64,000 nt of DNA from Alphaproteobacteria bacterium (lineage in GTDB: Bacteria; Pseudomonadota; Alphaproteobacteria; Bin95): positions 448,001-512,000 of the forward strand of contig OZ224045.1 of NCBI GenBank assembly GCA_963665325.3, in the 5' to 3' direction. The position numbers and the translations under genes were made by a program. Of this stretch, positions 2,933-60,761 are shown one piece after another (position 1 is the first letter of the stretch; each line of letters starts with the position of its first letter). The notes under the pieces are model-generated. The model made no database searches. It was not told the DNA's origin and saw only the letters and a program-made list of their open reading frames with translations.

Positions 2933-3057
2933 TTATGGGAACCTGAGTCGCGTCCAATCCCTTGATAATCAACGCCCGCAGCGGCTCAGGTTCCCAGAAT
3001 CATAAGGTTCCCATATCCGCTGTTATCGGAACCTTCCGATAACAGCGGGCTTATCGG
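2933..3057. repeat. RIT right-end recombinase binding sites and junction palindrome
   Basis: 12-bp IR TGGGAACCTGAG (2936-2947) / CTCAGGTTCCCA (2985-2996), a further GGTTCCCATA at 3006, and a perfect 15-bp hairpin at 3017-3031 / 3034-3048. Confidence 0.8.
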
Positions 3058-3765
3058 CGCCCCTTGCGGGGTTCCTTTCCGCTCCTTGCGCGCCCGGTTC
3101 GTGCGGCGCTTGCCGCCCTTGCCGTCGTCCTCCTCCACCGGCATTTCCAGCCATGCCTTGATGAGCTTGAGCATCCGCCCGTCGCTGATGCGTCGGGCGA
3201 AGCTCTTCAGAAGCTCGGCATGCGGGATTTCGCCGAAGTAGTTGGACAGGTCGCAATCGACCACCTCGTTGTGCCCTCCGTATAGGAGGCGAACGACGCG
3301 CTTCACCGCGTCGTGGGCGCTCCGCTCCGGCCTGTAGGCGTACTGCTCCGGTTGCAGGTCCGCTTCGAATATCGGCTCAAGAACAAGCAGAGCCGATGTC
3401 TGCGCCACCCGGTCCCGTATGCAGGGGATGCCCAAGGGCCGGAACTTGCCGGGCTGTTTCTTCGGGATGAGCACCTGTCGCACCGGCTTCGGTGTGTACG
3501 TCCCATCCCTCAGTTCCCGCGCCAGTTCCCCAAGCCAGCGCCCCACGCCATCCGACTCGATGTCCGCGAAGGTCTCTCCGTCCACCCCGGCGGCCCCGCC
3601 ATTTCGGCGAACTCGCTTCCAGGCTTCCGCGAGAAAGTCCTCGCGCCACACCTTGTCGATCAGCGCGTGGAAGCGCCGGTCGGGTTCTTCCTTAGCTTTC
3701 ACATGTAACACGGTCTGGAGTCGCCGGACCTTGTCTGACCCTGGTAGGCTTTCGCCAGTGGTCAT
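2986..3765 (-). pseudogene. ltrA: Group II intron reverse transcriptase/maturase, truncated after GTPQG
   Basis: GAAGVDG, RPLGIPCIRDRVAQ, YAYRPERSAHDA, DCDLSNYF and GTPQGAPISPLLS, then RIT-derived sequence. No YADD or X domain in the window. Confidence 0.9.
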
Positions 3766-4254
3766 GCCTTTCTCCCTTTCCGCATCGCTCTCGAACCAGG
3801 GCTCCTTCCCTCCACCGGCATTACCCGGCATCCACGGTAATACGAGCCCATCCGCCACCCTGCCGGCCCGGCCTGCCCCTCGCGGGGTTCCGGTTGGTGC
3901 GTGCCACACCACCGACAGGGCTTCCCGTGTTGCTCCCATCCCCCTCTTCCATGCGTGCCGCCGCCACTACCCCGGCGGAACTGCCCGGTGCGCATGTCGC
4001 TCGCTTCCCGGACGGTGGCAGCCTTCCCCAACCGTTAGACGGGTCGGCTTCCGCATCACCCTTTTCGAGGCCTGCTCGGCGTTCACTCGCGTTGCGGCCC
4101 GCATGGTCGCCTGAACCGCCCAAGGCGGTCCTTTGTCGGAGTGCTTCAGACGATGTCGTTACCTCCATCATCCGCTCCGATTGCTACCGGCTGGAGCGAC
4201 AGTTGCCGGGCGGGATTCGCACCCGCTGAGGGATGGTGCCTTTCCACGGCACAC
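3043..4254 (-). mobile_element. Group II intron, 5' half (interrupted by RIT)
   Basis: Minus strand starts GTGTGCCGTGG at 4254 (GUGYG 5' end), has ~490 nt of non-coding leader, then the RT ORF. The flanking sequence from 4255 matches the transposon end at 59335. Confidence 0.85.
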
Positions 4255-4435
4255 TAACGGTAACGGGTAACACGCCCGTCCCAATCCGCGTCAAGCTCTC
4301 GGCCCGTGGCCGGAAGCTTGCTTACAGCCATGGATGCACTTCGTCCGACACTCCCGCCCGGCTTTGCCGTGACCGGCAGTCGATCCCCATCAGATAACGC
4401 GAAACCCGCACCATCAAATACCGTGCGCACGCTCA
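4255..4435 (+). mobile_element. Right end of a diverged relative of the 55215-59597 transposon
   Basis: TAACGGTAACGGGTAACAC, GGCCCGTGGCCGGAAGCTTGCTTACRGCCATGGATGCACT and the terminal CCATCA.ATACCG.G.GCAC.CTCA all match 59335-59597. Ends in TCA at 4435. Confidence 0.8.
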
Positions 4436-5484: not shown

Positions 5485-6495
5485 TCACTCCCGGGGCTCG
5501 GCGGTGACCCTGGTGGTGTAGCCGCGCCCCTTCGACAGGTTGTGATCGGCGCGCAGGATGGTCCACTGGCCGATGCCCGGTTCCGGCCAGTCCTCCAGCT
5601 CCAGCACGGCCTCCGACACCAGGCGCGGATCGCCTGGCACGGTCAGATCCAGTTCCTTGGTCTGGCGGGCGAACCGGCCCAGACGCGCAGCTGCGGCTGC
5701 CTCGGCTTGTGCGCGGTCGGGCAGCGGCTCGCGTATCTCGTAGACAGGCTCGCCCGCGCCGGCCTTCACGTGGACGAACGAGGCGCTGGCGACGTCCTGG
5801 TAGCCCGCGACCACGGCACCGAAGCGAGGGCGGCCCTTCACCGCGTAGCGGGCGGACAGGACGCTTCTTTCGCCGGCTCTGCGCGCTCCGGGCGCCAGCC
5901 GGACCGTAGGCATTGTCTGCCCCGACAGAGCGGTGCGCCCGCTGCCGCGCGGGGCGAAGACCAGAGAGCCGCCCACCGCCTTGAACGTGGCGTCATATTG
6001 CCGGGACAGGCGGCGCAGCAGGTGCAGATCGCTCTCCGCTGTCTGGTCGATGTGGGGAATGACGATCCCGGACAGGCTGGGCGGCACGGCACCCCTGTAA
6101 TCGTGCTCGGCGGCGATCGTGGCGACCAGATCGCCGAGCGAGACATTGTCCCAGGCGCGCCGCTTCGGCGCCTTGAGCGTCGACCGGCGGCGGAAGTCGG
6201 CGGCGGTGGCCCGCACGACCAGGCGCCGGGGCTCCAGGTCGATCTCGGACTCGTCGTGGTAATACACACCCATGCCGACCAGCCCGGCATCCTCGTAACC
6301 GATCGACACCCTCATCTCCCGCTCCGCCGCCGGCAGCGCCAGCTTGGCGTCGGCGTCCGATAGCTCGATCTCCAGCGTGTCGCTGGTCCGGTCAGAGGTG
6401 ATCGCAAGCCGGAGATTGAGCAGGCTGTCACGGACGAGCCGGGTGACATCGGCCCCGCCCGCAATCACCTCGAACGCCGGTGTTCTCACTCCCAT
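5485..6495 (-). CDS. Phage late control / baseplate hub protein (P2 gpD-like)
   Basis: SDTLEIELSD, HIDQTAESDLHLLRRL and GYTT C-terminus; last gene of the tail module. Confidence 0.85.
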   Translation of the reverse strand: MGVRTPAFEVIAGGADVTRLVRDSLLNLRLAITSDRTSDTLEIELSDADAKLALPAAEREMRVSIGYEDAGLVGMGVYYHDESEIDLEPRRLVVRATAADFRRRSTLKAPKRRAWDNVSLGDLVATIAAEHDYRGAVPPSLSGIVIPHIDQTAESDLHLLRRLSRQYDATFKAVGGSLVFAPRGSGRTALSGQTMPTVRLAPGARRAGERSVLSARYAVKGRPRFGAVVAGYQDVASASFVHVKAGAGEPVYEIREPLPDRAQAEAAAAARLGRFARQTKELDLTVPGDPRLVSEAVLELEDWPEPGIGQWTILRADHNLSKGRGYTTRVTAEPRE

Positions 6496-50556: not shown

Positions 50557-50804
50557 GATTCCGCACTCGATGTGGCGACTCTGGCGCTCAGGAGAGTCGC
50601 CACATCGAGAGTCGCCAGATTGAGTCGCCACCTGACGACTCGGAGTCACCCGTTTCGCATTTCTGGCGACTCTCGCGATTTTGGTCGTTTCCGCCTTGCG
50701 CGCCCCCTCCGCCCTTATTTCACTTGCCCTTCAGCCCCTCACGCCTCTTTTCACTTCTTCACGTCACCTGGCGACTCCGAGTCAGATCATTCCCTACTCC
50801 TACA
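50557..50804. repeat. Prophage repressor-proximal end: TGGCGACTC/GAGTCGCCA repeats and TIR
   Basis: Six copies at 50573, 50594, 50609, 50622, 50664 and 50769; terminal CTACA. Confidence 0.85.
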
Positions 50805-53800
50805 CAGGCGCAGGTCGCGTGCAGCACGGCCAATGCCGACGGCTCCTATGACGTTCCCTTCGACTGGGCGCTGAAGCCCTCCGGCCTCGCCGCCGGCACC
50901 AAGTTCCGCCTGCTGTTCGCCACCTCGACGAGGCGCAACGCCTCAGCGACCGACATCGGGACCTACAACACCTTCGTGCAGACCCGCGCCAAGGCGGGCC
51001 ACAGCGCGATCTCCGACAGCTGCGGCAACCTCTTCAAGGTGGTGGGCTCGACCTCCGCGATCGACGCCCGCGTCAACACCGACACCGAATCGACCGACAC
51101 GGCGGCGCTGATCTACTGGCTGAACGGCGCCAAGGTCGCCGACAGCTACGCCGACTTCTACGACGGAAGCTGGGACAGCCGTGCGCACAGGACCGAATCG
51201 GGAGGGACCAGCAGTTATACGTTCGTATTTACAGGCAGCAATCAGGACGGCACCAAGAGCTCCTCCATTGCATTTGGTGCAGCGGCGGTTAGCACAGCCA
51301 ATCTGAACAGCGGCGGTCCACTTGCTGGCTCCGGTTCTACTGTTAACACCGCTACCCACCGCTTCCTCGCCCTCTCCCCGATCTTCACGGTAGGCACGAA
51401 GCCGCACGTGACCATTTCCGCGGGCACTTCGCCGGTGACGGAGGGCACGGCGGCGAGCTTCACCCTGAGCGTCAGCCCGGTCCCGTCGGCGCCCCTGGAT
51501 GTCGATGTGCTCGTCAGCGACAACTCCGACTTCGTCGATGCGGCCAACCTGGGCTTCAAGACGGTCACGGTCCCGGCCGGCGCCGCCACGCACGCCTACA
51601 CCGTCCCCACGGTCGACGACACCGCGGACGACGCCAGCGGTGAGGTGGCTATGGCTATCTTCCCCGGAACGGACTACACAAGGGACGCTGTTGTCGCCCG
51701 TGTCGACGTCACCGACAACGACGCCACGCTTGTGAGCCTTGTGGCGACGTCGGACGTGACCTTCACGGAGGAGACCCCGACGGACACGGCGGCGGTGACG
51801 GTGCGCCTGGCGCGGCGGCTCTACGCGGGCGAGAACCTGGCGGTGCCGTTCGAAGTCTTTGGAAGCGGGGTTGCACTCCAGGACCAGTTAAATCGAAGCT
51901 ACACCCTGTCCGTTTCGGGCACCGGAGTGACTGCAACGGACCTGACAGGCAGCACCGCCTATGTACGCTTCACCGGCCACGACACCGACATCGTGCAGGA
52001 GGCCACGGTCACCGTGACGCCGACGAGCAACGACGACGGCAACACGGCGGCCGGTTCCCTCACGATGGAACTTTCGACTCTCTCGTCCGGCGACTGGACC
52101 CACAGCTTCACCACCGTCGGCGGCGGGGGCGCGCCCCACGGCACGGACGACGAGGTGAGGCTGGTCTATGCCGACAACGACGTAATGTTCGACACCCTGA
52201 CCCTGCTCGACCTCGGCGGGCCGCGGATCCACCTGGACATCGGGACCTCGCCGGGAGTGACCGGGAGCGGGCGCGACTGGACCCTCGAGGAGGGGACCGA
52301 CATCGTGCTGCGCTTCAGCAACCTCACGAGGACCCTGCACAGCCAGGACCTCGTGGTGAACTACGCCGTGGCGGGCGCCAAACACCATGTCCCCGACGGC
52401 CACCGGGGGACCCGGTCGGTGACGCTTCCGGCGAACACGCGCTCGGTCCAGGTGACCCTTCCGACCGAGGCCACCACCGACGACGAGACCGACGCGGAGC
52501 TGTCGGTGATGCTCCTGGCCGCGACCCCCCCGATGGGGGAGACCAACACCCTGGGGACCTACACGACCAACTTCAGGCCGCTGAACTTCACGGTCACGGA
52601 CGGATCGGACGGGCACACGAACAGAATCCGTCCGCTCGTCACGGTCGAGACGTGGTACGCGAACCCCTCCAACGACCCGGACGAGCCGGACAAGGAGGAC
52701 CCGCGGATCGAGGGGGAGGACCTCCAGTTCGACGTCCGGTTGGCCCCGGCGGCGCAGGTGCCGTTCACGGTCTGGCTGAAGGTCGAGGAGACCGTCGGGA
52801 CCGGTTACGGCGACTGCGTCGCGGCCGGGCAGGAGCGGGTGCGCACGGTCCGGTTCGCGCCCGGGGTGAGCTGGCGGACGCTCCGCGTGCCGACGGTGGA
52901 CGACGACGTGGACGAACATGACTGCGAGGTGACGGTGTCGCTGGCGTCGGATGCCGCGGGCACGGTGCCCGCGCCGGCGCAGGTATTTGTCAACGTGGAT
53001 AGCGGGCCGGGCCGCGGCGGCTACGGTATCGCCGTGGGCTCCGGTTTCGACGTGAGCGGGAAGGCCGTGGCGACGCGGCTGGTCCGCGACAACGAGACCG
53101 GCCCGAAGGGGAGCGGTTCGGATGACGGGATCGGTCCCGTGACCCCGGGCGCGGGTCCGGCGGTGACGATCGCGGCGGACCGGACGCAGGTCGACGAGGG
53201 CGGCGACGTGACCTTCACGGTCACGGCGGACCCGGCGCCGGCGCGCGACCTGGAAGTGACCGTGTCGGCCGACGAGGAGATGGGCTCGGGCGACGACCGC
53301 ACCGGCGGCGGGCATTTCGGGACGGTGACGGTCCGGGCGGGCCAGACGACGGCGACGTGGACGCTGACGACGATATCGGACCAGGTCGCCCTGGCCGACG
53401 GCACGGTGACGGGGCGCATCGAGGCGGGCGACGGCTATACGGTCGGCAAGCCGTTCGAGGTGACGGTGGCGCTGCTGGACGACGACGGGGTCGTGACGCA
53501 GAGCGTGACCGATCCCGTGACCCCGGGCGTGGACGCTGCGCTGGTGGCCGAGGTGACGGCGCTGGCGGACGGACATTCCAACCCGGATGCGGCGGCGCGG
53601 CTGCGGCGCGTCGTCAAGGGCATGACCGGGGAGGACGGCGGCTACACGGCGGAGGAGTGCCGGGAGGCCGCGACCCGGCACGGCGTGCTGTCCACATGGA
53701 AGCCCTGGTGCGACGAGATTGCGCGCCGCGAGGCGCACACGCCGCCCGTGCCGCAACAGCAGCAGGTCATGACCCTGCCGGCGGTGAGCGTCTCGGCGGG

Positions 53801-55214
53801 TGCGGGCGTGACCGAGGGCGGGGATGCGGTGTTCACGGTGACGGCGAGCCCGGCGCCCGCGGCGGAGCTGTCGGTGACGGTGACCGTCGCGGCGACGGGC
53901 GACTTCGGCATCACCGCGGGCAACCGATCGGTGACGATCCCGACGACGGGCAGCGCCACGCTGACGCTGGCGACGGCGAACGACAAGGCGGACGAGCCGG
54001 ACGGCTCGGTAAGCGTGACGGTGGCGGCCGGCAACGGCTACACGGTGGGTTCCCCCGCGTCGGGCAGCGTGTCCATAGCGGACGACGACCTGCCGCCGCC
54101 GGCGGTGTCGATCGCGGCGAAGGCGGCCTCGGTGACGGAAGGCGGCGCGGCCGCCTTCACGCTGACGGCCGACCGCGCGCCGGATGCCGACCTGACGGTG
54201 ACGCTTTCGGTCGCGGAGACCGGGGGCGGCGACCATGTGGCGGCGGCGGACGAGGGTCCGGCCACGGCGGTCATCGCGAAGGGCGCAACGGAGGCGGTCT
54301 TCTCCGTCGCCACGGTGGACGACGACGTGGACGAGCCGGACGGCTCGGTCACGGTGACGCTGAAGGACGGCGGGGGCTACACGGTCTCGCCGTCGCAGGG
54401 CGCGGCCGCGGTGACGGTCTCCGACAACGACGCGGCGGCGCTCCCGTCGCTGTCGGTGGCCGACGTGACGATCGAGGAGGACGCGTGGATGGAGTTCACG
54501 GTGCGCCTTTCGGCGCCTTCGGCAGGGGGCGTTTCGGTGAAGGTGTCGACGCGCGATTCGACCCCGGTCTCGGCGACGGCGCGGAAGGACTACTGGCCGC
54601 TGTCCGGACGGACGGTGAGCTTCCGCGCGGGCGAGACCGAGCGGTCCGTCGGGGTCATCGTCTTCGACGACAGCCATGACGAGGAGGCGGAGACGTTCGA
54701 GGTTGTGCTGTCGGATGCCAGGGGCGCGGCGATCGCCGACGGGGTCGCGGTCGGGACGATCGTGAACGACGACCCGATGCCGGCGGCGTGGCTGGCGCGG
54801 TTCGGGCGCACGGTGGCGGAGCAGGCGCTGGACGGGATCGCGGGCCGCATGGCGGCGGACCGCACGGCCGGCATGCAGGGCTCGATCGCCGGGCAGGCGC
54901 TCTCGTTCGATCCGGCCGCCAACGACAATGCGACCCCGGGCCATGCCGCCTCCGGGTCTCCGGCCTCCGGAGGGACCGGCGCGCTGGCGCTGGCCGATGT
55001 CGCGCGGGCGTTCGGCGGCCAGTCCGGCCATTCCGGCCCGGCCGGCTTCGGTCATGACGCGGCCGGGTTCGGCAGCGGCTTCGACGGAATGCAGCCGCAA
55101 TCGCGGACCATGACGATGCAAGACGTCCTGCTGGGCAGCAGTTTCTCGCTGACCGGCGCGACGGACGGCTCGGGCGGCAGCATGGCGTTCTGGGGCCGTG
55201 CGGCGCAGGGCGGC
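50805..55214 (+). pseudogene. Autotransporter adhesin, fragment 2 (N-terminal domain + multiple Calx-beta-like repeats)
   Basis: Repeated V.EG..A.FT...T.DD..DE.DG.V.V....GYTV units; stops at a TGA created by the transposon end. Confidence 0.88.
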
Positions 55215-55361
55215 TGAGCGGGCGCAGGCTTTCAGCGGCGATCAGGGGCTGATCGGCTCGGATTAATCGAGGTTTTGGATTGGGTGCCCCCCGGCGATCT
55301 TGCAAGAAGGCCGCCGGAGGGCTTGTCTCGGTGACAGTGACATCAACCTGAGACGGCCCCA

Positions 55362-55976
55362 ATGTCGCACAAGCTGTTCCGGCACTCCAATCTCTCCAAC
55401 GCCCGGGTTTGGGATTTTCTGAAGCAGGTCGACGCGGCCGAGGCGGAGGCGTGCCGGGCGGCGGGTTGCCCGCGCTGCGGCGGCGCGCTTCACAGCGCGA
55501 GCTACCCGCGCAAGCCGCACGGTCTGGCGGCGAATCTTCGGAACGACGTTCGGCGCTTCAGCCTGTGCTGTTCGGTGTGCCGACGCCGCGTGAAGCCGCC
55601 GTCGGTGCGTTTCTTCGGCAGGCGCTTTTACGTCGGGGCGCTGTTCCTTGTGGTGAGTGCGCTGGCTGTGGCCGGCGGCGCGCGGTTGCAGACGATCGCG
55701 CGGCGGTGCGGGGTTCCGGCCTCGACGCTGAAGCGCTGGCGGCGCTGGTGGCTGGAAGCCTTCCCGCTGACCCGGGAGTGGCAGGCGAGACGGGGCGAGC
55801 TGGCGGCGCCGCCCGAAGAGGCGCCGCTGCGCCGGCTGCTGCGCATCATGCGGGGCCGTGGCTTCCGCTCGCGGCTGCTGCGGAGCCTGGTCTGGCTGAT
55901 GCCGTGGACCGGCTTTTGCGCGCTCGGCGCAGGTCCGGCTTCGCCCGCAGAAAGCGTTTCTATGATGCACGGATAG
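55362..55976 (+). CDS. Zn-ribbon/HTH accessory protein of the transposon
   Basis: CPRCGG...CSVCRRR and STLKRWRRWW motifs. Confidence 0.7.
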   Translation: MSHKLFRHSNLSNARVWDFLKQVDAAEAEACRAAGCPRCGGALHSASYPRKPHGLAANLRNDVRRFSLCCSVCRRRVKPPSVRFFGRRFYVGALFLVVSALAVAGGARLQTIARRCGVPASTLKRWRRWWLEAFPLTREWQARRGELAAPPEEAPLRRLLRIMRGRGFRSRLLRSLVWLMPWTGFCALGAGPASPAESVSMMHG

Positions 55977-56024
55977 GGCACCGCATCATCGGCACCTCCA
56001 CGAAGCAGCGAGGGGGATGCCGGA

Positions 56025-57499
56025 ATGAACAGCAACGACGGGAGCGAGCGTCGCGACCGGTGGGCGCGGTTGCGCTTCGCGGTGGTCGGGCCGCTTCTGG
56101 CCTCGCCGCCGCCGGCGGGGCGGCTGCACGCCGAGCTTGAGCGGCTTGCCGAACGCGAGTGGGATCACCCGTCCGGCAAGGGCCGGGTGCGCTTCGCGGT
56201 GTCCACGATCGAGCGCTGGTACTACCAGGCGCGGGCGGCGGACAACGATCCGGTGGGGGCGCTCAAGCGGCGCCCGCGCGCCGATGCCGGGCGCCCGCGC
56301 GCGATGTCGCCGACGCTGATCGAGGCGCTGCACGAGCAGTACCGGGCGCATCCGTCGTGGTCGGCGCAGCTTCATCACGAGAATCTGGCCGCGCGGGTCG
56401 AGGCCGATCCCGAGCTCGGCCCGATACCGTCCTACGCGACGCTGACCCGGGCGATGCGGGCTCGCGGGCTGGTACGCAAGCGCCGGCGCAAGTGGCATGA
56501 GAGCGAGGCCAGGCCGGCGGTCGAAGCCCGCGAGGTATTGAGCTACGAGGTCTCGCGCTCTCACGCCCTGTGGCACGCCGACATGCACAGCGCCAAGCGT
56601 CGCGTGCTGACCGCCTCGGGCGAGTGGAAGACGCCGATCCTGCTCGGCTTCCTCGACGACCACTCGCGCCTCGGCTGCCACCTTCAGTGGTACCTCGCCG
56701 AGACCGCCGAGGTGTTCGTCCACGGCCTTTGCCAGGCCTTCATGAAGCGCGGTCTGCCGAGGTCCCTGCTGACCGACAACGGCGCGGCGATGACCGCGGG
56801 CGAGGTCGAGGAGGGGTTGCACCGGCTCGGCATCGCGGGGGTCACGACGCTCGCTTACAGCCCCCATCAGAACGGCAAGATCGAGTCGTTCTGGGGCACG
56901 GTCGAATCGCGCCTGATGGCTCAGCTCGAAGGCGTCGACGCGCTTACCTTGAAGATGCTCAACGACGCCACCATCGCCTGGCTGGAGCAGGACTATCACC
57001 GCCGCAAGCACCGCGAGCTCGGCATGACGCCGCATCAACGCCTGGCCGGGAGCGTCGACGCGTCGAGATCCTGCCCCGGCTCGGCCGAGCTCAAGGCGGC
57101 CTTCCGCATCACCAGGAAGCGCACGCTCAGGCGCTCGGACGGCACCGTCTCGGTCGAGGGCATCCGCTACCAGGTGCCACAGCCGTGGCGCCACCTGCGC
57201 GAGGCCTGGATCCGTTACGCGCGCTGGAACCTCGCCAGCGTCGATCTGATCGACGGTCGAGGCGGCGAGCGCCTGTGCACGCTGTACCCCTCGACAAGCG
57301 CGGCAACGCCGATGGCGTGCGCCGTCCCGCCGGCCCCGGCGGCAACGATGGCAATGGCGGCGCGGGGACGGGGGAACTTCCGCCGCTGCTCAAGGGCATG
57401 CTCGACGCCCAGGCCGCAACCGGCCTGCCGCCGGCCTGGCTGCCCCATGACAAGACGCCCGGTCCGGGCGAGGACGAAGATCGGGGAGATGCGCCATGA
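56025..57499 (+). CDS. DDE transposase (rve core, Mu-like C-terminus); 1-nt frameshift at CCCC 57287-57290
   Basis: WHADMH, FLDDHSR, TDNGAA, NGKIESF. The natural C-terminus PLDKRGNA...LPPAWLP is in the -1 frame and ends overlapping the next ATG. Confidence 0.88.
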
Positions 57500-58329
57500 A
57501 CCGGGAACTGCTCACCTTCTACGGGCTCAAGTGGAACCCCTTCGCCACCGACCTGCCGGTCGACAGTCTCATGGCGACGCCTGCCGTCGACAGCTTCTGC
57601 CTCAGGATCGAGCGCCACCTGGTGCGCCAGGGCGGCTTCGCCTTGATCGCCGGCGAGCCCGGCGCCGGAAAGAGTGTGGCGTTGCGCCTGCTCGCCGACC
57701 GTCTCGGCCGCTGCGAGGGGCTCAGCATCGCCGCCATCACCCATCCCTCCTCCCGGCTGTCCGACTTCTACCGCGAGATCGGCGAGATGTTCGGCGTCGA
57801 CCTGATGTACAACAACCGCTGGGCCAGCTTCAAAAGCCTGCGCGAGCGCTGGCTCGCCCATGTCGACGATACCCGCATGCGCCCCGTCGTGCTCGTCGAC
57901 GAGGCCCAGGAGCTGCTGCCCTCGGTGTTCTCCGAGATCCGCCTGCTGGCTTCGACCGACTTCGACTCGCGCGCCATCCTCTCGGTCGTCCTCGCCGGCG
58001 ACACGCGCCTGCTCGACAAGCTCCGCCAGCCCGATCTGCAGCCCATCGCCTCGCGCATCCGCCAGCGCCTGGTCATGACCAAGGCCGAGGCCGGCGACCT
58101 CGCGGCCCTGCTCGACCATCTGATCGAGCAGGCCGGCAATCCCGGCCTCATGACCGCGGGCCTCAAGGACACCCTGGTCGCCCATGCCGACGGCAACCCG
58201 CGGGCGCTCACCGTCATGGCCGACGCCCTGCTCGCCGCCGCCGCCGAGAAGGAGCGCGAGGTCCTCGACGAGAAGCTCTTCATCGAGACCCTGGGCGAAC
58301 CCGCCAAGCCGAGGAGGGCGCGGCGGTGA
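57496..58329 (+). CDS. ExeA-like AAA ATPase (transposition helper)
   Basis: YGLKWNPF, GEPGAGKS, VLVDEAQ, SRI, GNPR. Confidence 0.9.
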   Translation: MNRELLTFYGLKWNPFATDLPVDSLMATPAVDSFCLRIERHLVRQGGFALIAGEPGAGKSVALRLLADRLGRCEGLSIAAITHPSSRLSDFYREIGEMFGVDLMYNNRWASFKSLRERWLAHVDDTRMRPVVLVDEAQELLPSVFSEIRLLASTDFDSRAILSVVLAGDTRLLDKLRQPDLQPIASRIRQRLVMTKAEAGDLAALLDHLIEQAGNPGLMTAGLKDTLVAHADGNPRALTVMADALLAAAAEKEREVLDEKLFIETLGEPAKPRRARR

Positions 58330-59324
58330 AGGGCTTCCCGACACGGGCGCCGGCGGAGCTCGAAGAGCGCCCCCAGGCGCGCCGCTGGATGGTCGAGGCG
58401 TTGTGGTCCGAGCAGGGCGTCGGCATCGTCGGCGGCGAGCCCAAGTGCGGCAAATCCTTCCTCGCACTCGACATCGCCGTCGCGGTCGCCGCCGGCGTCC
58501 CCTGCCTGCGCCACTTCCGTCCCGCCGCAAGCGGCCCCGTGCTGCTGTTCGCCGCCGAGGACGCCGGCCATATCGTGCGCGCACGCCTCCAGGGCATCGC
58601 AAAGGCGGCAGGCACCGCGTTCGAGACCCTCGACATCGCCGTCATCGACGTGCCCACGCTGCGTCTCGACCATCGCGCCGATCGCCAGCGCCTGGTCGAG
58701 ACGGTGGAGCGCGTCTCACCCCGCCTCGTCGTCCTCGACCCCCTCGTGCGCCTGCACGGCGTCGACGAAAATACCGTCGCCGAGGTCGCCCCCATGCTGG
58801 GCTTCCTGCGCGACATACAGCGCCGCTTCGAAACCGCCGTCCTCCTCGTCCATCACGCACGAAAGAGCGGCGGCTCCCGGCCCGGGCAGGCGCTGCGCGG
58901 CAGCAGCGAACTTCACGCCTGGGGCGATTCGAATCTGTACCTGCGCCGGCGAGACCGCCAGATCCTCATGACCGTCGAGCATCGCGACGCCCCTGGCCTC
59001 GAAGACCTCGAGATCGAACTCGCCGACGACGACGAGCGCCCCGCCCTGCGGTTGCGCGAGACGCCGGAAGACCAGGCGCCGGAGCCGGATACCCCCGAAC
59101 GGCGCATCCTGCAGGCCCTCGCCGACGCCGACGCGCCGCTCTCCCAGCGCCGGATCCGCGAGCGCGCGGCAACCCGGCCCGCAACCGTCGCCGAGGCGCT
59201 GCACAGGCTCGTCCGCGAAGGACGCGTCGAGCGCGCATCCGAAGGCGGATACCGCCTCGCCGCCCTCAACGGCAACGACCGCAGGGACACGTTACCGAAA
59301 ACCGTTACCGCCTCGAACCCCTAG
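58326..59324 (+). CDS. RecA/RepA-like (AAA_25) helicase-type ATPase with a C-terminal winged helix
   Basis: GTG overlaps the upstream TGA; WMVE.LW, GEPKCGKSF, AED, VVLDP, LVHHARK, LRGSS.L.AW.D. Confidence 0.85.
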   Translation: MKGFPTRAPAELEERPQARRWMVEALWSEQGVGIVGGEPKCGKSFLALDIAVAVAAGVPCLRHFRPAASGPVLLFAAEDAGHIVRARLQGIAKAAGTAFETLDIAVIDVPTLRLDHRADRQRLVETVERVSPRLVVLDPLVRLHGVDENTVAEVAPMLGFLRDIQRRFETAVLLVHHARKSGGSRPGQALRGSSELHAWGDSNLYLRRRDRQILMTVEHRDAPGLEDLEIELADDDERPALRLRETPEDQAPEPDTPERRILQALADADAPLSQRRIRERAATRPATVAEALHRLVREGRVERASEGGYRLAALNGNDRRDTLPKTVTASNP

Positions 59325-59351
59325 GGAGAGAGGGTAACGGTAACGGGTAAC
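59291..59351. repeat. Inverted iteron-like array: GTTACC x2 then GGTAAC x3
   Basis: 59291 and 59304; 59333, 59339 and 59346; straddles the helicase stop codon. Confidence 0.75.
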
Positions 59352-59597
59352 ACCGCTCCCATTGTCACACTGCGTAAAGCGGCCGGCCCGTGGCCGGAAG
59401 CTTGCTTACGGCCATGGATGCACTCCGTCGGAGGGACGGCGGCGGGTCACCCGAAGGGCCGGAGCGCAGCGCAGGAGCCGCGAAGCGGCTTGACGCGCCG
59501 ACGGCCGTCCGACACCCCCGCCGTCACGCCCGGCCCGACGCCTGAAAACCATCGAACAACGTGACCATCCCGCCATCAGATACCGAGAGCACACTCA

Positions 59598-60761
59598 GGC
59601 GGCTTCGACGGCCGCGAGGGGACGTTCTCGCTCGACGGCACGGTCACCACGGGCATGCTCGGCGCGGACTATGCCCGCGGCAAGTGGCTGGTCGGCCTTG
59701 CGCTCGCGCAAAGCGAGGGCGAGGGCGACTACCGCGACAGCGATGTCGCTCCCCGCTCCAACAGCCAGACCTGCCCCTCCGATGCGGAGGGCGCGGACGC
59801 CGAACTGTGCCGGAACGCGGTGCGGGCGGGCGACGGCAAGGTGGAGGCGTCGCTGACGGCGGCGATCCCCTATGCGGCGTTGCAGGTCTCGGAGCGCCTG
59901 AAGCTCTGGGGCGCGGCGGGCTACGGTTCGGGCGAGGTAACGCTGAAGACCGCGCTCGGCGGGAGCTACAAGGCGGACACCAGCTGGAGCATGGCGGCGG
60001 CCGGGCTTCGGGGCGACCTGCTGGCTGCCCCGGCGGAGGGTTCCGGCCCGGCGCTGGCGGTGACCTCGGACGCGCTGTGGACGCGGAGCTCTTCTGAGAA
60101 GACCCGCGACCTCGCGGCGTCGGAGTCCGACGCGACCCGGCTGAGGCTCGGCCTGGAGGGCAGCTACCGCATGGCCCTTGAGGGCGGCGGTCATCTGACG
60201 CCGAAGCTGGAGGTCGGCGCGCGCCATGACGGCGGCGACGCGGAGACCGGCTTCGGGGTCGAGATCGGCGGCGGGATCGCGTGGAGCGACCCGGCGCTAG
60301 GTCTGTCGCTGGACGTCTCGGGGCGCACGCTGATCGCGCACGGCAACGACGACCTGAAGGACCGGGGCTATGCGGCCGCGCTCGCCTTCGATCCGGACCC
60401 GGCGACCGGGCGGGGTCCGTCGCTGAGCCTGCGCCAGGAGTTCGGCGGGCAGGCCAATGGCGGTCTCGACGCGCTGTTCCAGCCGGCGACGCTGGAGGAC
60501 CGCACGGGCAGCGAGGCCGCGTCCCGCTGGGCGATGGAGGCGGCCTACGGCTTCCCGGCCTTCGGCGGGCGCTGGACCGGCAGCCCGCATATGGGTCTGG
60601 GGCTCGCTACGGCTACGCGCGACTACAGCCTCGGCTGGCGCCTGACGCCGGAAGCCGCGAACGCGCCCGCCCTGTCGTTCGGTCTCAGGGCGACACGGCG
60701 GGAGAGCGACACGGCGCAGGCGGAGCACACGGTCGGGGTCGAGATTACCGCCCGCTGGTGA
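59598..60761 (+). pseudogene. Autotransporter adhesin, fragment 3 (beta-barrel)
   Basis: TGMLGADY, RLRLGLEGS, GARHDGGDAETGFG and amphipathic strands ending in W. Confidence 0.9.

Follow-up and report, generated by a model that had tools for sequence, protein, structure and literature searches.

A Tn6049-Family Transposon with an Exchangeable RepA-like Helicase Cassette, a Candidate Replication-Initiation Module

The window analyzed here is a stretch of 64,000 nucleotides from an Alphaproteobacteria bacterium (GenBank assembly GCA_963665325.3, contig OZ224045.1, positions 448,001 to 512,000). It holds a transposon of 4.38 kb at 55215–59597, which starts with TGA (55215–55217) and ends with TCA (59595–59597). 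The element is a Tn6049-family transposon carrying a foreign helicase cassette under selection. The cassette consists of a helicase gene, a palindrome of hexamers around the helicase stop codon, and a structured motif of about 125 nt, and it is found on transposon backbones which are otherwise only distantly related. Judged from sequence comparison, the cassette may be a replication-initiation module serving the transposon in cis, and we give this reading a probability of about 0.5. Positions are those of the window unless a contig or locus is named.

Results and Discussion

Distribution and Exchange of the Helicase Cassette

Relatives of the helicase were encoded in 140 stretches of the GTDB species genomes, of which 80 were kept and 22 of these taken as representatives. 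The kept loci came from metagenome-assembled genomes (MAGs) of Alphaproteobacteria, Chloroflexota, Acidimicrobiales, and Acidobacteriota. Copies were often numerous within one genome, and a single MAG held dozens of helicase loci. In metagenomes, 7823 proteins among the 8000 candidates scored were related to the helicase at E ≤ 0.001. The best 120 metagenome homologues were 72–99% identical, and the relatives at E ≤ 1e-30 formed 489 clusters at 50% identity.

An ExeA-like gene was located upstream of the helicase gene in all 22 representatives, directly adjacent to it except in L075, where an insertion of ~2.2 kb separated the two. The representatives were of two types. In type A (13 of 22), the backbone proteins were 63–91% identical to those of the window element, the ends read TGAG...CTCA, and the left-end motif was the same. 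In type B (9 of 22), the transposase and ATPase showed only ~28% identity to those of the window element, the first gene was a different one of their own, and the ends read TGTTGT...ACAACA. Despite this distant backbone, the type B helicase was 74–79% identical to the window helicase, and the cassette protein in general showed 74–82% identity across elements with ~28% identical transposases and ATPases. Comparison of the window element with the type B element L078 gave DNA similarity (78%) only at element positions 3102–4305, which correspond to 58316–59519 of the window. The cassette limits thus defined run from ten bases 5′ of the helicase start to slightly beyond the structured motif.

A third backbone was observed in G283 (L202, contig C198, 3.4 kb). 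Its 483-aa rve transposase was 27% identical to type A and 36% identical to type B; the locus also encoded a DUF6431 protein with a Pfam match and, behind the transposase, a close helicase homologue cut by the contig end. As the helicase, palindrome, and motif are shared across dissimilar backbones, they form a discrete cassette moved between distant members of one broad family. The same module on at least three backbones amounts to a natural swap experiment. The earlier note on this DNA had regarded the repeats and end motifs as functional core rather than cargo. This view was not upheld, since the 1.2-kb cassette is swapped between distant backbones and Tn6049 lacks it; by these comparisons the cassette appears as an add-on exchanged between backbones and not as the functional core of transposition.

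In the plasmid database PLSDB, the helicase matched four records, all at ≤31% identity over ≤61% of the query. Type B relatives on the plasmids pBB2 and pGeo12a showed the gene order DUF6431, transposase, and ATPase, without the helicase.

Membership in the Tn6049 Family

The proteins encoded ahead of the helicase were identical to those of Tn6049 from Cupriavidus metallidurans at 40% (orf1), 51% (transposase), and 52% (ATPase) of positions, in the same gene order. The element had been proposed to represent a poorly described transposon class, which these identities contradict: its backbone belongs to the Tn6049 family and is already annotated, the PGAP labels for the three genes being DUF6431 protein, ‘IS481 family transposase’, and AAA ATPase. 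A tblastn search of the transposase against PLSDB gave 330 records, 21 of which covered ≥80% of the query with a best identity of 50–52%. The best relatives were found in Cupriavidus, in Paraburkholderia, and on the P. aeruginosa plasmid pHS87a, and carried the annotation ‘IS481 family transposase’. On pMOL30, the transposase gene is flanked by a 181-aa ‘transposase’ and a 277-aa AAA ATPase, after which a 71-aa hypothetical gene follows.

According to the available text of PMC2864759, Tn6049 is 3.5 kb long and present in 12 copies in CH34, each with a ‘gspA’ ATPase gene; the available text of PMC4739549 gives it 12-bp imperfect inverted repeats and 4-bp direct repeats. The window element resembles it in being multicopy, in its ends starting with TG (TGAGCGGGC...CACACTCA), and in its short direct repeats (duplications of 4–6 bp). 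It differs in size (4384 bp, with a 332-aa AAA_25 gene and 270 bp of structured DNA, against 3.5 kb in the same source text). Behind its ATPase, Tn6049 has the 71-aa hypothetical gene, which is unrelated to the helicase, and it has no AAA_25 gene, palindrome, or motif. This small open reading frame (ORF) was considered as a relative of the winged helix and rejected, as its sequence is unrelated by eye and gave no match.

That homologous elements mostly lack the helicase, an outcome which the earlier note had named as telling against its own proposal, is partly the case: the described and annotated relatives are without it, and among the 21 full-length transposase relatives in PLSDB there is none with a close helicase homologue. 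Of 400 further genomes sampled from the same class, three encoded a 49–56% identical transposase (the public G089 and G138, and the unpublished G240), and none of these three had a helicase match. One genome from the element’s genus and another from its family contained neither transposase nor helicase. A literature search found no DDE transposon with a RepA-like, AAA_25, or DUF3991 module; ISfinder, TnCentral, supplements, and the original Tn6049 paper were outside this search, and a prior description is possible. Nothing relevant was found in the literature on DUF6431.

Boundaries, Copies, and Mobility

The boundaries read earlier as TGA...TCA with a 6-bp duplication are confirmed by the window sequence, in which GGCGGC stands at both flanks. 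The terminal TGAGCGGGC is an imperfect inverted repeat of the right end. A BLAST search of the element’s own genome (5 contigs, 5.58 Mb, 67% G+C) found 24 copies with the same ends, spread over all five contigs. Twenty-one copies were identical at 4384 bp. The window copy has 4383 bp, another copy carries a 1-bp deletion in the non-coding left end, and in one (C1:2290596–2297053) a 2.07-kb insertion sequence has entered the palindrome at its central CTAG, which is duplicated. At least 12 further copies of this 2.07-kb insertion sequence are present in the genome.

Flank duplications of 4 bp were observed in 8 copies, 5 bp in 10, and 6 bp in 2, and 4 copies showed none. By these counts, 4–5 bp is the rule, and the window copy, with 6 bp, stands at the upper limit of the duplication lengths. 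Two of the four copies without a duplication (C2:25283–29666 and C4:930514–934897) had reciprocally matching flanks, CGACC and ACGG, a pattern pointing to recombination of copies from two different replicons or to a join made in assembly. Ten of the 24 copies are located inside ~350 kb of contig C1 (1.98–2.34 Mb); this clustering may reflect local hopping or a tolerant region.

The window copy splits an autotransporter-like ORF into two pieces, 50724–55217 and 59655–60761. The split gene is very large and has a repeat-rich passenger, and its C-terminal barrel part lies 3′ of the insertion. The empty site, with 55208 joined to 59598, was found in contigs of the DNA runs X1 (two contigs) and X8 (three contigs), and uninterrupted autotransporter-like alleles exist in both runs. 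The 24 same-ended copies, the duplications, and the empty-site contigs together demonstrate that the element is real, recently active, and a single moving unit. The proposal that all four genes travel together was therefore correct, as 21 of the same-ended copies are identical and the empty site is seen in contigs. No joint of the right end with the left end was listed in the contigs of the four runs, although contigs cannot show rare junctions. PLSDB contained no match to near-identical DNA of the element. The coordinates of all features are given in Table 1.

Table 1. Features of the transposon and of a related remnant in the window.
Feature	Position	Strand	Basis or remark
Left target-site duplication, GGCGGC	55209–55214		Sequence, flank comparison, empty-site contigs
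Left end: terminal TGAGCGGGC and subterminal repeats, presumed transposase binding sites	55215–55361	+	Identical ends in 24 copies
orf1, 204 aa: Cys-rich CxxC...CCxxC N-terminal part and HTH_23 (27.1 bits)	55362–55976	+	Domain scan
tnpA, rve-type DDE transposase (HTH_32, rve, C-terminal barrel)	56025–57499	+	Intact in other copies: 491 aa
ExeA/GspA-like AAA_22 ATPase, 277 aa	57496–58329	+	AAA_22 72.6 bits; start overlaps transposase stop (ATGA)
Exchangeable cassette: helicase gene, palindrome, and motif, ~1.2 kb	58316–59519	+	Sole DNA similarity to L078
AAA_25 ATPase with C-terminal winged helix, 332 aa	58326–59324	+	AAA_25 124.7 bits; GTG start overlaps preceding stop
Palindromic array: GTTACC-like hexamers left, 3 × GGTAAC right, around CCCCTAGGG with stop codon	59291–59351	.	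Repeat analysis
Structured motif	59388–59514	+	Covariation alignments, no Rfam match
Right end: subterminal repeats CATCGAACAACGTG, CATCAGATACCGAG and terminal ...CACACTCA	59520–59597	+	Ends common to all copies
Right target-site duplication, GGCGGC	59598–59603		Sequence, flank comparison
Right-end remnant of a related type A element: TAACGGTAACGGGTAAC hexamer repeats, partial motif (~80 nt deleted), terminal repeats to TCA	4255–4435	+	

The RepA-like Helicase

Searched against the sequences of the Protein Data Bank (PDB), the fourth protein gave RSF1010 RepA (1g8y) as its sole significant match (E 2.4e-8, residues 35–196), with an identity of only ~20%. The AlphaFold2 model, built on 64 sequences, had a mean pLDDT of 90.8, and Foldseek ranked RepA first (1nlf/1g8y, TM 0.69–0.75 on target), followed by DnaB, with RadA third. 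In the model, the last 80 residues at the C terminus fold into a winged helix of three helices. Walker A, Walker B, and the HHxRK/RGSS motifs showed no or almost no variation in sets of 26 and 64 homologues. By this model, the fourth protein is predicted to be a RepA(RSF1010)-like helicase fold of superfamily 4 (SF4), with a RecA-type core, fused to a winged helix. The earlier note had named a RepA-like helicase with a winged helix from the letters alone and had suggested AlphaFold as a check of 58326–59324; the AAA_25 match, the PDB match, and the confident model with RepA as its best fold match all agree with it.

Two distant AAA_25 relatives (G191 and G059) were located directly behind the tyrosine integrases of integrated phage-like elements. 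This is the usual position of replication genes, a context which speaks for the replication-initiation reading. With the distant homologue P0148 as query, no locus was found among the genome contigs. L162, whose helicase is 56% identical and which has the motif, was tried as a relative and found uninformative, being fragment-like and flanked by IS630- and IS110-type genes.

The Hexamer Palindrome

Inverted GGTAAC repeats straddling the helicase stop had been noticed before, and they are confirmed as conserved and co-varying across relatives. The two arms (59291–59314 and 59328–59351) are 24 nt each, 75% complementary, and 13 nt apart, with the TAG stop between them, and the hexamers within each arm are spaced at 6–7 bp. 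The sequence GGTAACGG was counted 8 times in the window, where 0.85 occurrences would be expected; three of the eight fall in the palindrome and one in the remnant of Table 1. Among 26 unique pairings of protein tail with DNA, the right arm was built of GGTAAC, GGAAAC, GGGAAC, or GGAACC, and the left arm of the matching complement. The palindrome was kept in all unique cassettes observed, with the hexamer changing jointly on both arms. In some elements the array extends into the final codons, and in others it stands entirely 3′ of the gene; it is therefore a DNA or RNA signal and not a coding constraint.

The start of the recognition helix followed the hexamer: TRPATV was paired with GGTAAC, TRATTV or IRAATV with GGAAAC, ARNA[ST]V with GGGAAC, and TRHKTV with GGAACC. 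This pairing fits binding of the array by the winged helix, as far as sequences can indicate it.

The Structured Motif

The structured motif was more conserved than the coding sequence. It begins with a 5′ hairpin (59392–59413), followed by a closing helix formed by 59427–59445 with 59494–59514. Enclosed by the closing helix are, in this order, the invariant core GUCACCCGAAGGGCCGnAGCGnAGCGnAGGA, a co-varying hairpin, and UUGAC. The 5′ hairpin is variable, and the closing helix has 16–19 bp of free sequence. The consensus fold of 47 distinct sequences comprised 29 pairs, and double compensatory changes were present in 20 of these. Paired cells amounted to 90.6%, compared with 34–39% when the partners were slid, and the covariation score was 0.522 compared with 0.07–0.10; none of 500 shuffles reached the observed values. 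On the coding strand, G-U pairs outnumbered A-C pairs by 106 to 23, which indicates that the coding strand is the functional one, as RNA or as single-stranded DNA. Rfam gave no covariance-model match up to E = 1 in 55000–59900, and the motif core searched as text had no match in the literature.

An exact search for 21 core positions in the GTDB species genomes found at least 92 stretches, with 80 loci and 85 instances among the matches listed. Eleven of these 85 instances adjoin transposon or helicase genes; the other 74 lie elsewhere, in either orientation to their neighbours. The occurrences span several phyla. In a Vicinamibacterales MAG (L107:3527–5269), a multicopy ISL3 element of 1.75 kb contains the motif ~190 bp from one of its ends, on the upstream side of the transposase gene and in divergent orientation to it. 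In IS21-type elements with IstA/IstB (L104, L155, L148, L158, and L140), it is found ~120 bp behind istB in antisense. In L177:3280–3449, its neighbour is a group II intron reverse-transcriptase gene, which lies on the opposite strand with its 3′ end next to the motif, and IS110-type genes stand beside the motif in L108, L123, and L127; its hairpin may be a preferred target of intron and IS110-type elements. Other sites are near plasmid RepA_C, relaxase/ParA, and Toprim_3 genes, and intergenic sites lie beside groEL/mnmG, priA, trmD, glmS, or acs in either orientation. In the element’s own genome, the motif occurs only in the 24 transposon copies.

The structured 3′ region pointed out by the earlier note is thus real as a structure, while its assignment to this transposon falls short, as the motif is independent and is also present between genes and within ISL3 and IS21 elements. 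In the RNA libraries X17 and X19, the motif bin had a greater depth than the adjacent bins; this was not used, as depth was taken per contig and the motif is common to other elements. The motif is a well-supported structured element without a family name, carried by several families of insertion sequences, and its role, be it that of a priming site, of an RNA, or another, is worth finding.

A Primase-like Gene in the Position of the Motif

The 3′ region matched that of the window element in 66 of the 80 helicase loci and had no match in 14. Two of these 14 (L047 and L066) run off their contig, and L063 has neither motif nor primase. A gene with DUF3991 and Toprim_2 domains was present in seven (L043, L054, L055, L062, L075, L083, and L092), and also in L060. 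Three more (L077, L087, and L089) do not appear in the gene listing, which gives identical proteins once; in L077, the DNA behind the palindrome is identical to that of L075. L046 and L050, with short partial 3′ matches, carry the gene as well. Altogether, there were eight distinct full-length sequences from eight loci and a split copy in L092.

The Toprim gene codes for ~289 aa and starts ~100 bp behind the helicase stop, directly behind the palindrome, where it replaces the motif. With it, the elements L060 and L062 have five genes in 5.19 kb between type A ends. One Chloroflexota variant shows an extra ORF with a weak NikA-like match (E 0.005) before the Toprim gene. The pairing of the helicase with a Toprim primase-like gene fits a replication module. 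A complex prediction of the helicase with the L060 Toprim protein scored 0.00, which is evidence neither way.

The Backbone Genes

The genes had been called from the letters as a Zn-finger/HTH protein, a DDE transposase, an ExeA-like ATPase, and an AAA_25 protein with a winged helix. All four identities are borne out, with the correction that the transposase is frameshifted in the window copy. The orf1 protein is the counterpart of the DUF6431 gene of Tn6049-type elements, its equivalent on pBB2 and pGeo12a being labelled ‘DUF6431 domain-containing protein’ by PGAP, and a language-model search also gave DUF6431 as a lead. Its AlphaFold2 model (pLDDT 48.8) was too low for a judgement of the fold.

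The HTH_32, rve, and rve_3 matches of the transposase were each slightly below the Pfam cut-off. Among NCBIfam models, it scored best with IS481 (124.3 bits, cut-off 224), followed by IS3 (62 bits, cut-off 160) and IS21 (45.6 bits, cut-off 160). In the window copy, one C is missing from a run of five at 57288–57291. The extra C (57286) was present in all four sequencing runs compared and in 23 of the 24 copies, where the transposase is intact and ends at 57499. A programmed frameshift was considered and ruled out, given the extra C in those copies and in reads and contigs of the four runs. The 1-bp deletion breaks the transposase, so the window copy is non-autonomous. A listed ORF of 1099 aa is an artefact of the frameshifted transposase in GC-rich DNA.

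The ATPase scored 95.8 bits with TIGR03015, which is under the cut-off of that model, and matched MuB (8xvb) weakly (E 0.056). Start and stop codons overlap at the gene joints (ATGA, GTGA) in an operon-like way. Among the Pfam matches of the four proteins at E ≤ 0.01, there were none to TniB, TniQ, TnsA, or resolvase families, and none to IstB_IS21 (PF01695).

Proposed Mechanism and Alternatives

Transposition itself is performed by three genes, those of the Cys-rich/HTH (DUF6431-like) protein, the rve-type DDE transposase, and the ExeA-like AAA_22 ATPase, as the anatomy, the 24 copies, and the empty site show. The transposase acts on the TG...CA ends and, presumably, on the subterminal repeats, and the ATPase would by analogy be a partner of the MuB/IstB/TniB type. 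In the replication-initiation reading, the winged helix of the ring helicase would hold it at the 3+3 hexamer palindrome next to the stop codon, in the manner of an initiator-helicase, and the helicase would unwind the element starting there. Priming would be provided in some relatives by the element-encoded DUF3991/Toprim protein, and in the window element at the structured motif in the same position, which could be a single-strand priming signal or an RNA. Some replicative step, copy-out or Mu-like, is expected because the element has neither resolvase nor second-strand nuclease, and copy-out is the mechanism of the related IS3/IS481 group. The benefit would lie in this step, either by copying of the element from the donor or by amplification of an excised circle, with a rise in copy number. 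The window copy, without a transposase of its own, could be moved in trans by other copies.

Several observations weigh against this reading. The window element lacks a primase gene, and an AT-rich region suited to unwinding is not obvious in it. Its hexamers repeat every 6–7 bp, unlike classical iterons, which are ~20 bp. The match of recognition helix and hexamer is also expected from shared descent, because there are only four groups and these are also four lineages, and a hairpin fits the joint change of both arms as well as a protein site does. The AAA_25 family also takes in RecA-fold recombination helicases such as RadA, the third-ranked fold match. The role of the motif need not be tied to the helicase, because 74 of the 85 listed instances lie away from any helicase. 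Finally, the cassette is not needed for transposition, as Tn6049 reached 12 copies in CH34 without it (available text of PMC2864759).

It is somewhat unlikely that the cassette is a selfish hitchhiker or ordinary cargo (for regulation, defence, or counter-defence) which brings the transposon no gain. Relatives without it are active and multicopy, its borders are sharp and common to ~28% identical backbones, as expected of a self-moving module, and its downstream part is variable (motif, Toprim gene, or NikA-like ORF with Toprim), while the motif travels alone in other insertion sequences. A mere passenger is harder to reconcile with the constant position of the helicase in the transposon in 22 of 22 representatives, no free-standing copy of the subfamily having been seen there, or with purifying selection across several phyla (72–99% identity in the top 120 homologues) and an element size kept near 4.4 kb. 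The pairing of helicase and primase, moreover, points to DNA synthesis.

We consider it improbable that the helicase works inside the transposition reaction, as a RadA-like motor of branch migration or remodelling on a strand-transfer or figure-eight intermediate, or in repair of the donor site, with the palindrome as a loading or regulatory site. The structural matches to RadA and DnaB almost equal that to RepA, and since no resolvase or TnsA-like second nuclease is encoded by the four genes, replicative processing by other factors would be expected. IEE, a trans-acting PrimPol-helicase, is reported in the available text of 10.1101/2023.06.07.543989 to raise excision of copy-out-paste-in insertion sequences. 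A ~78% identical helicase on backbones with 28% identical transposase and ATPase argues, however, against specific protein contacts, and the fused DNA-binding domain with its matching repeats resembles an initiator with its site.

It seems more improbable still that palindrome and motif are transcript-level signals only (a terminator, a 3′-end stabiliser, or a small RNA gene), with the winged helix as an autoregulator of the operon. Both features do stand at the 3′ end of the operon on the coding strand, the preference for G-U pairs (106 vs. 23) favours that strand, and the GNRA-type and GAA loops are typical of RNA. The contigs of two RNA libraries also include the motif region, which is weak evidence, as DNA is possible in the libraries and the motif is common to other elements. 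Neither structure is followed by a U tract, a hairpin has no need of three tandem hexamers per arm, and the motif is antisense to genes in the IS21-type elements, all of which disfavour a purely transcript-level role.

Beyond the window element, the replication-initiation reading can be widened. Widespread DDE transposons of insertion-sequence size would then carry a portable replication-initiation cassette (initiator-helicase, hexamer origin, and primase or ~125-nt priming signal), by which they copy themselves or amplify a circle without host initiation, and ISL3- and IS21-type elements with replicative or circular intermediates would have acquired the motif in separate events. We put this forward tentatively, as possible rather than probable.

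Other Features of the Window

The right-end remnant at 4255–4435 had been cited as a diverged relative whose repeats and end motifs argued for a functional core. The relative is real and has both, whereas a broken right end says nothing about function. Further pieces of it, the helicase tail and the left end, are found a short way outside the window on the upstream side (C1:446362–446548). Between the remnant pieces are three tandem tyrosine-recombinase genes (57–1013, one inside 374–1936, and 1827–2921) and a reverse-transcriptase fragment on the minus strand (2986–3939). The segment 57–3939 looks like a recombinase-in-trio element and an intron relic inserted into a dead transposon copy. Further on, an ORF on the minus strand (5485–6495) has a Phage_GPD domain (baseplate hub/VgrG-like).

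Comparison with Known Systems

With the IS481, IS3, and IS21 families, the window element has in common TG...CA ends, short duplications, and a DDE transposase of the rve type whose N-terminal part is an HTH; IS21, too, pairs its transposase with an ATPase. It differs from them in that its matches are under the NCBIfam cut-offs, its ATPase is AAA_22 and not IstB_IS21, and it has four genes in 4.4 kb where those families have one or two genes. The Mu-type C-terminal barrel (Pfam Mu-transpos_C matches a type B relative), the subterminal repeats, and the ATPase partner are reminiscent of Mu, Tn7, Tn5053/Tn402, and Tn552. Compared with these, the element is much smaller and shows no TnsA, resolvase, TniQ, or TniB match; to our knowledge, none of them has a RepA-type helicase.

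RSF1010 RepA was the best match of the fourth protein in both sequence and fold. The IncQ logic combines a helicase, initiator-bound DNA repeats, and a dedicated primase or single-strand priming sites: RepC binds iterons of roughly 20 bp, the RepB primase works with ssi sites, and the plasmid replicates autonomously. In the present element, by contrast, the helicase is fused to a winged helix, the repeats are hexamers at 6–7 bp, no RepC- or RepB-like gene is encoded, and the primase-like gene of the relatives is of the DUF3991/Toprim kind. We know of no plasmid form of this element.

Phage satellites bring a replication module of their own (Rep/ori). SCCmec likewise is a non-plasmid mobile element with its own helicase, Cch, and a primase, presumably replicating after excision, as the available text of PMC7581432 has it. 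SCCmec and the satellites differ from the present element in using site-specific recombinases and other helicase families and in measuring 15–60 kb, whereas here the carrier is a DDE transposon of insertion-sequence size. IEE is similar in being a primase/helicase-type protein that promotes a step of insertion-sequence transposition. As far as the available text of 10.1101/2023.06.07.543989 goes, however, it is a host or island gene, PrimPol-based and acting in trans, whereas here the gene is inside the element together with its own putative cis site.

If the replication-initiation reading is true, a helicase with its own site, paired with a primase in relatives, within a 4.4-kb transposon would be a new route of self-amplification, and it could partly account for why some genomes of symbionts and from the environment reach very high copy numbers. 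In the usual view, bacterial DDE transposons depend on the host for DNA synthesis, and casposons and Polintons are the rare self-synthesising exceptions.

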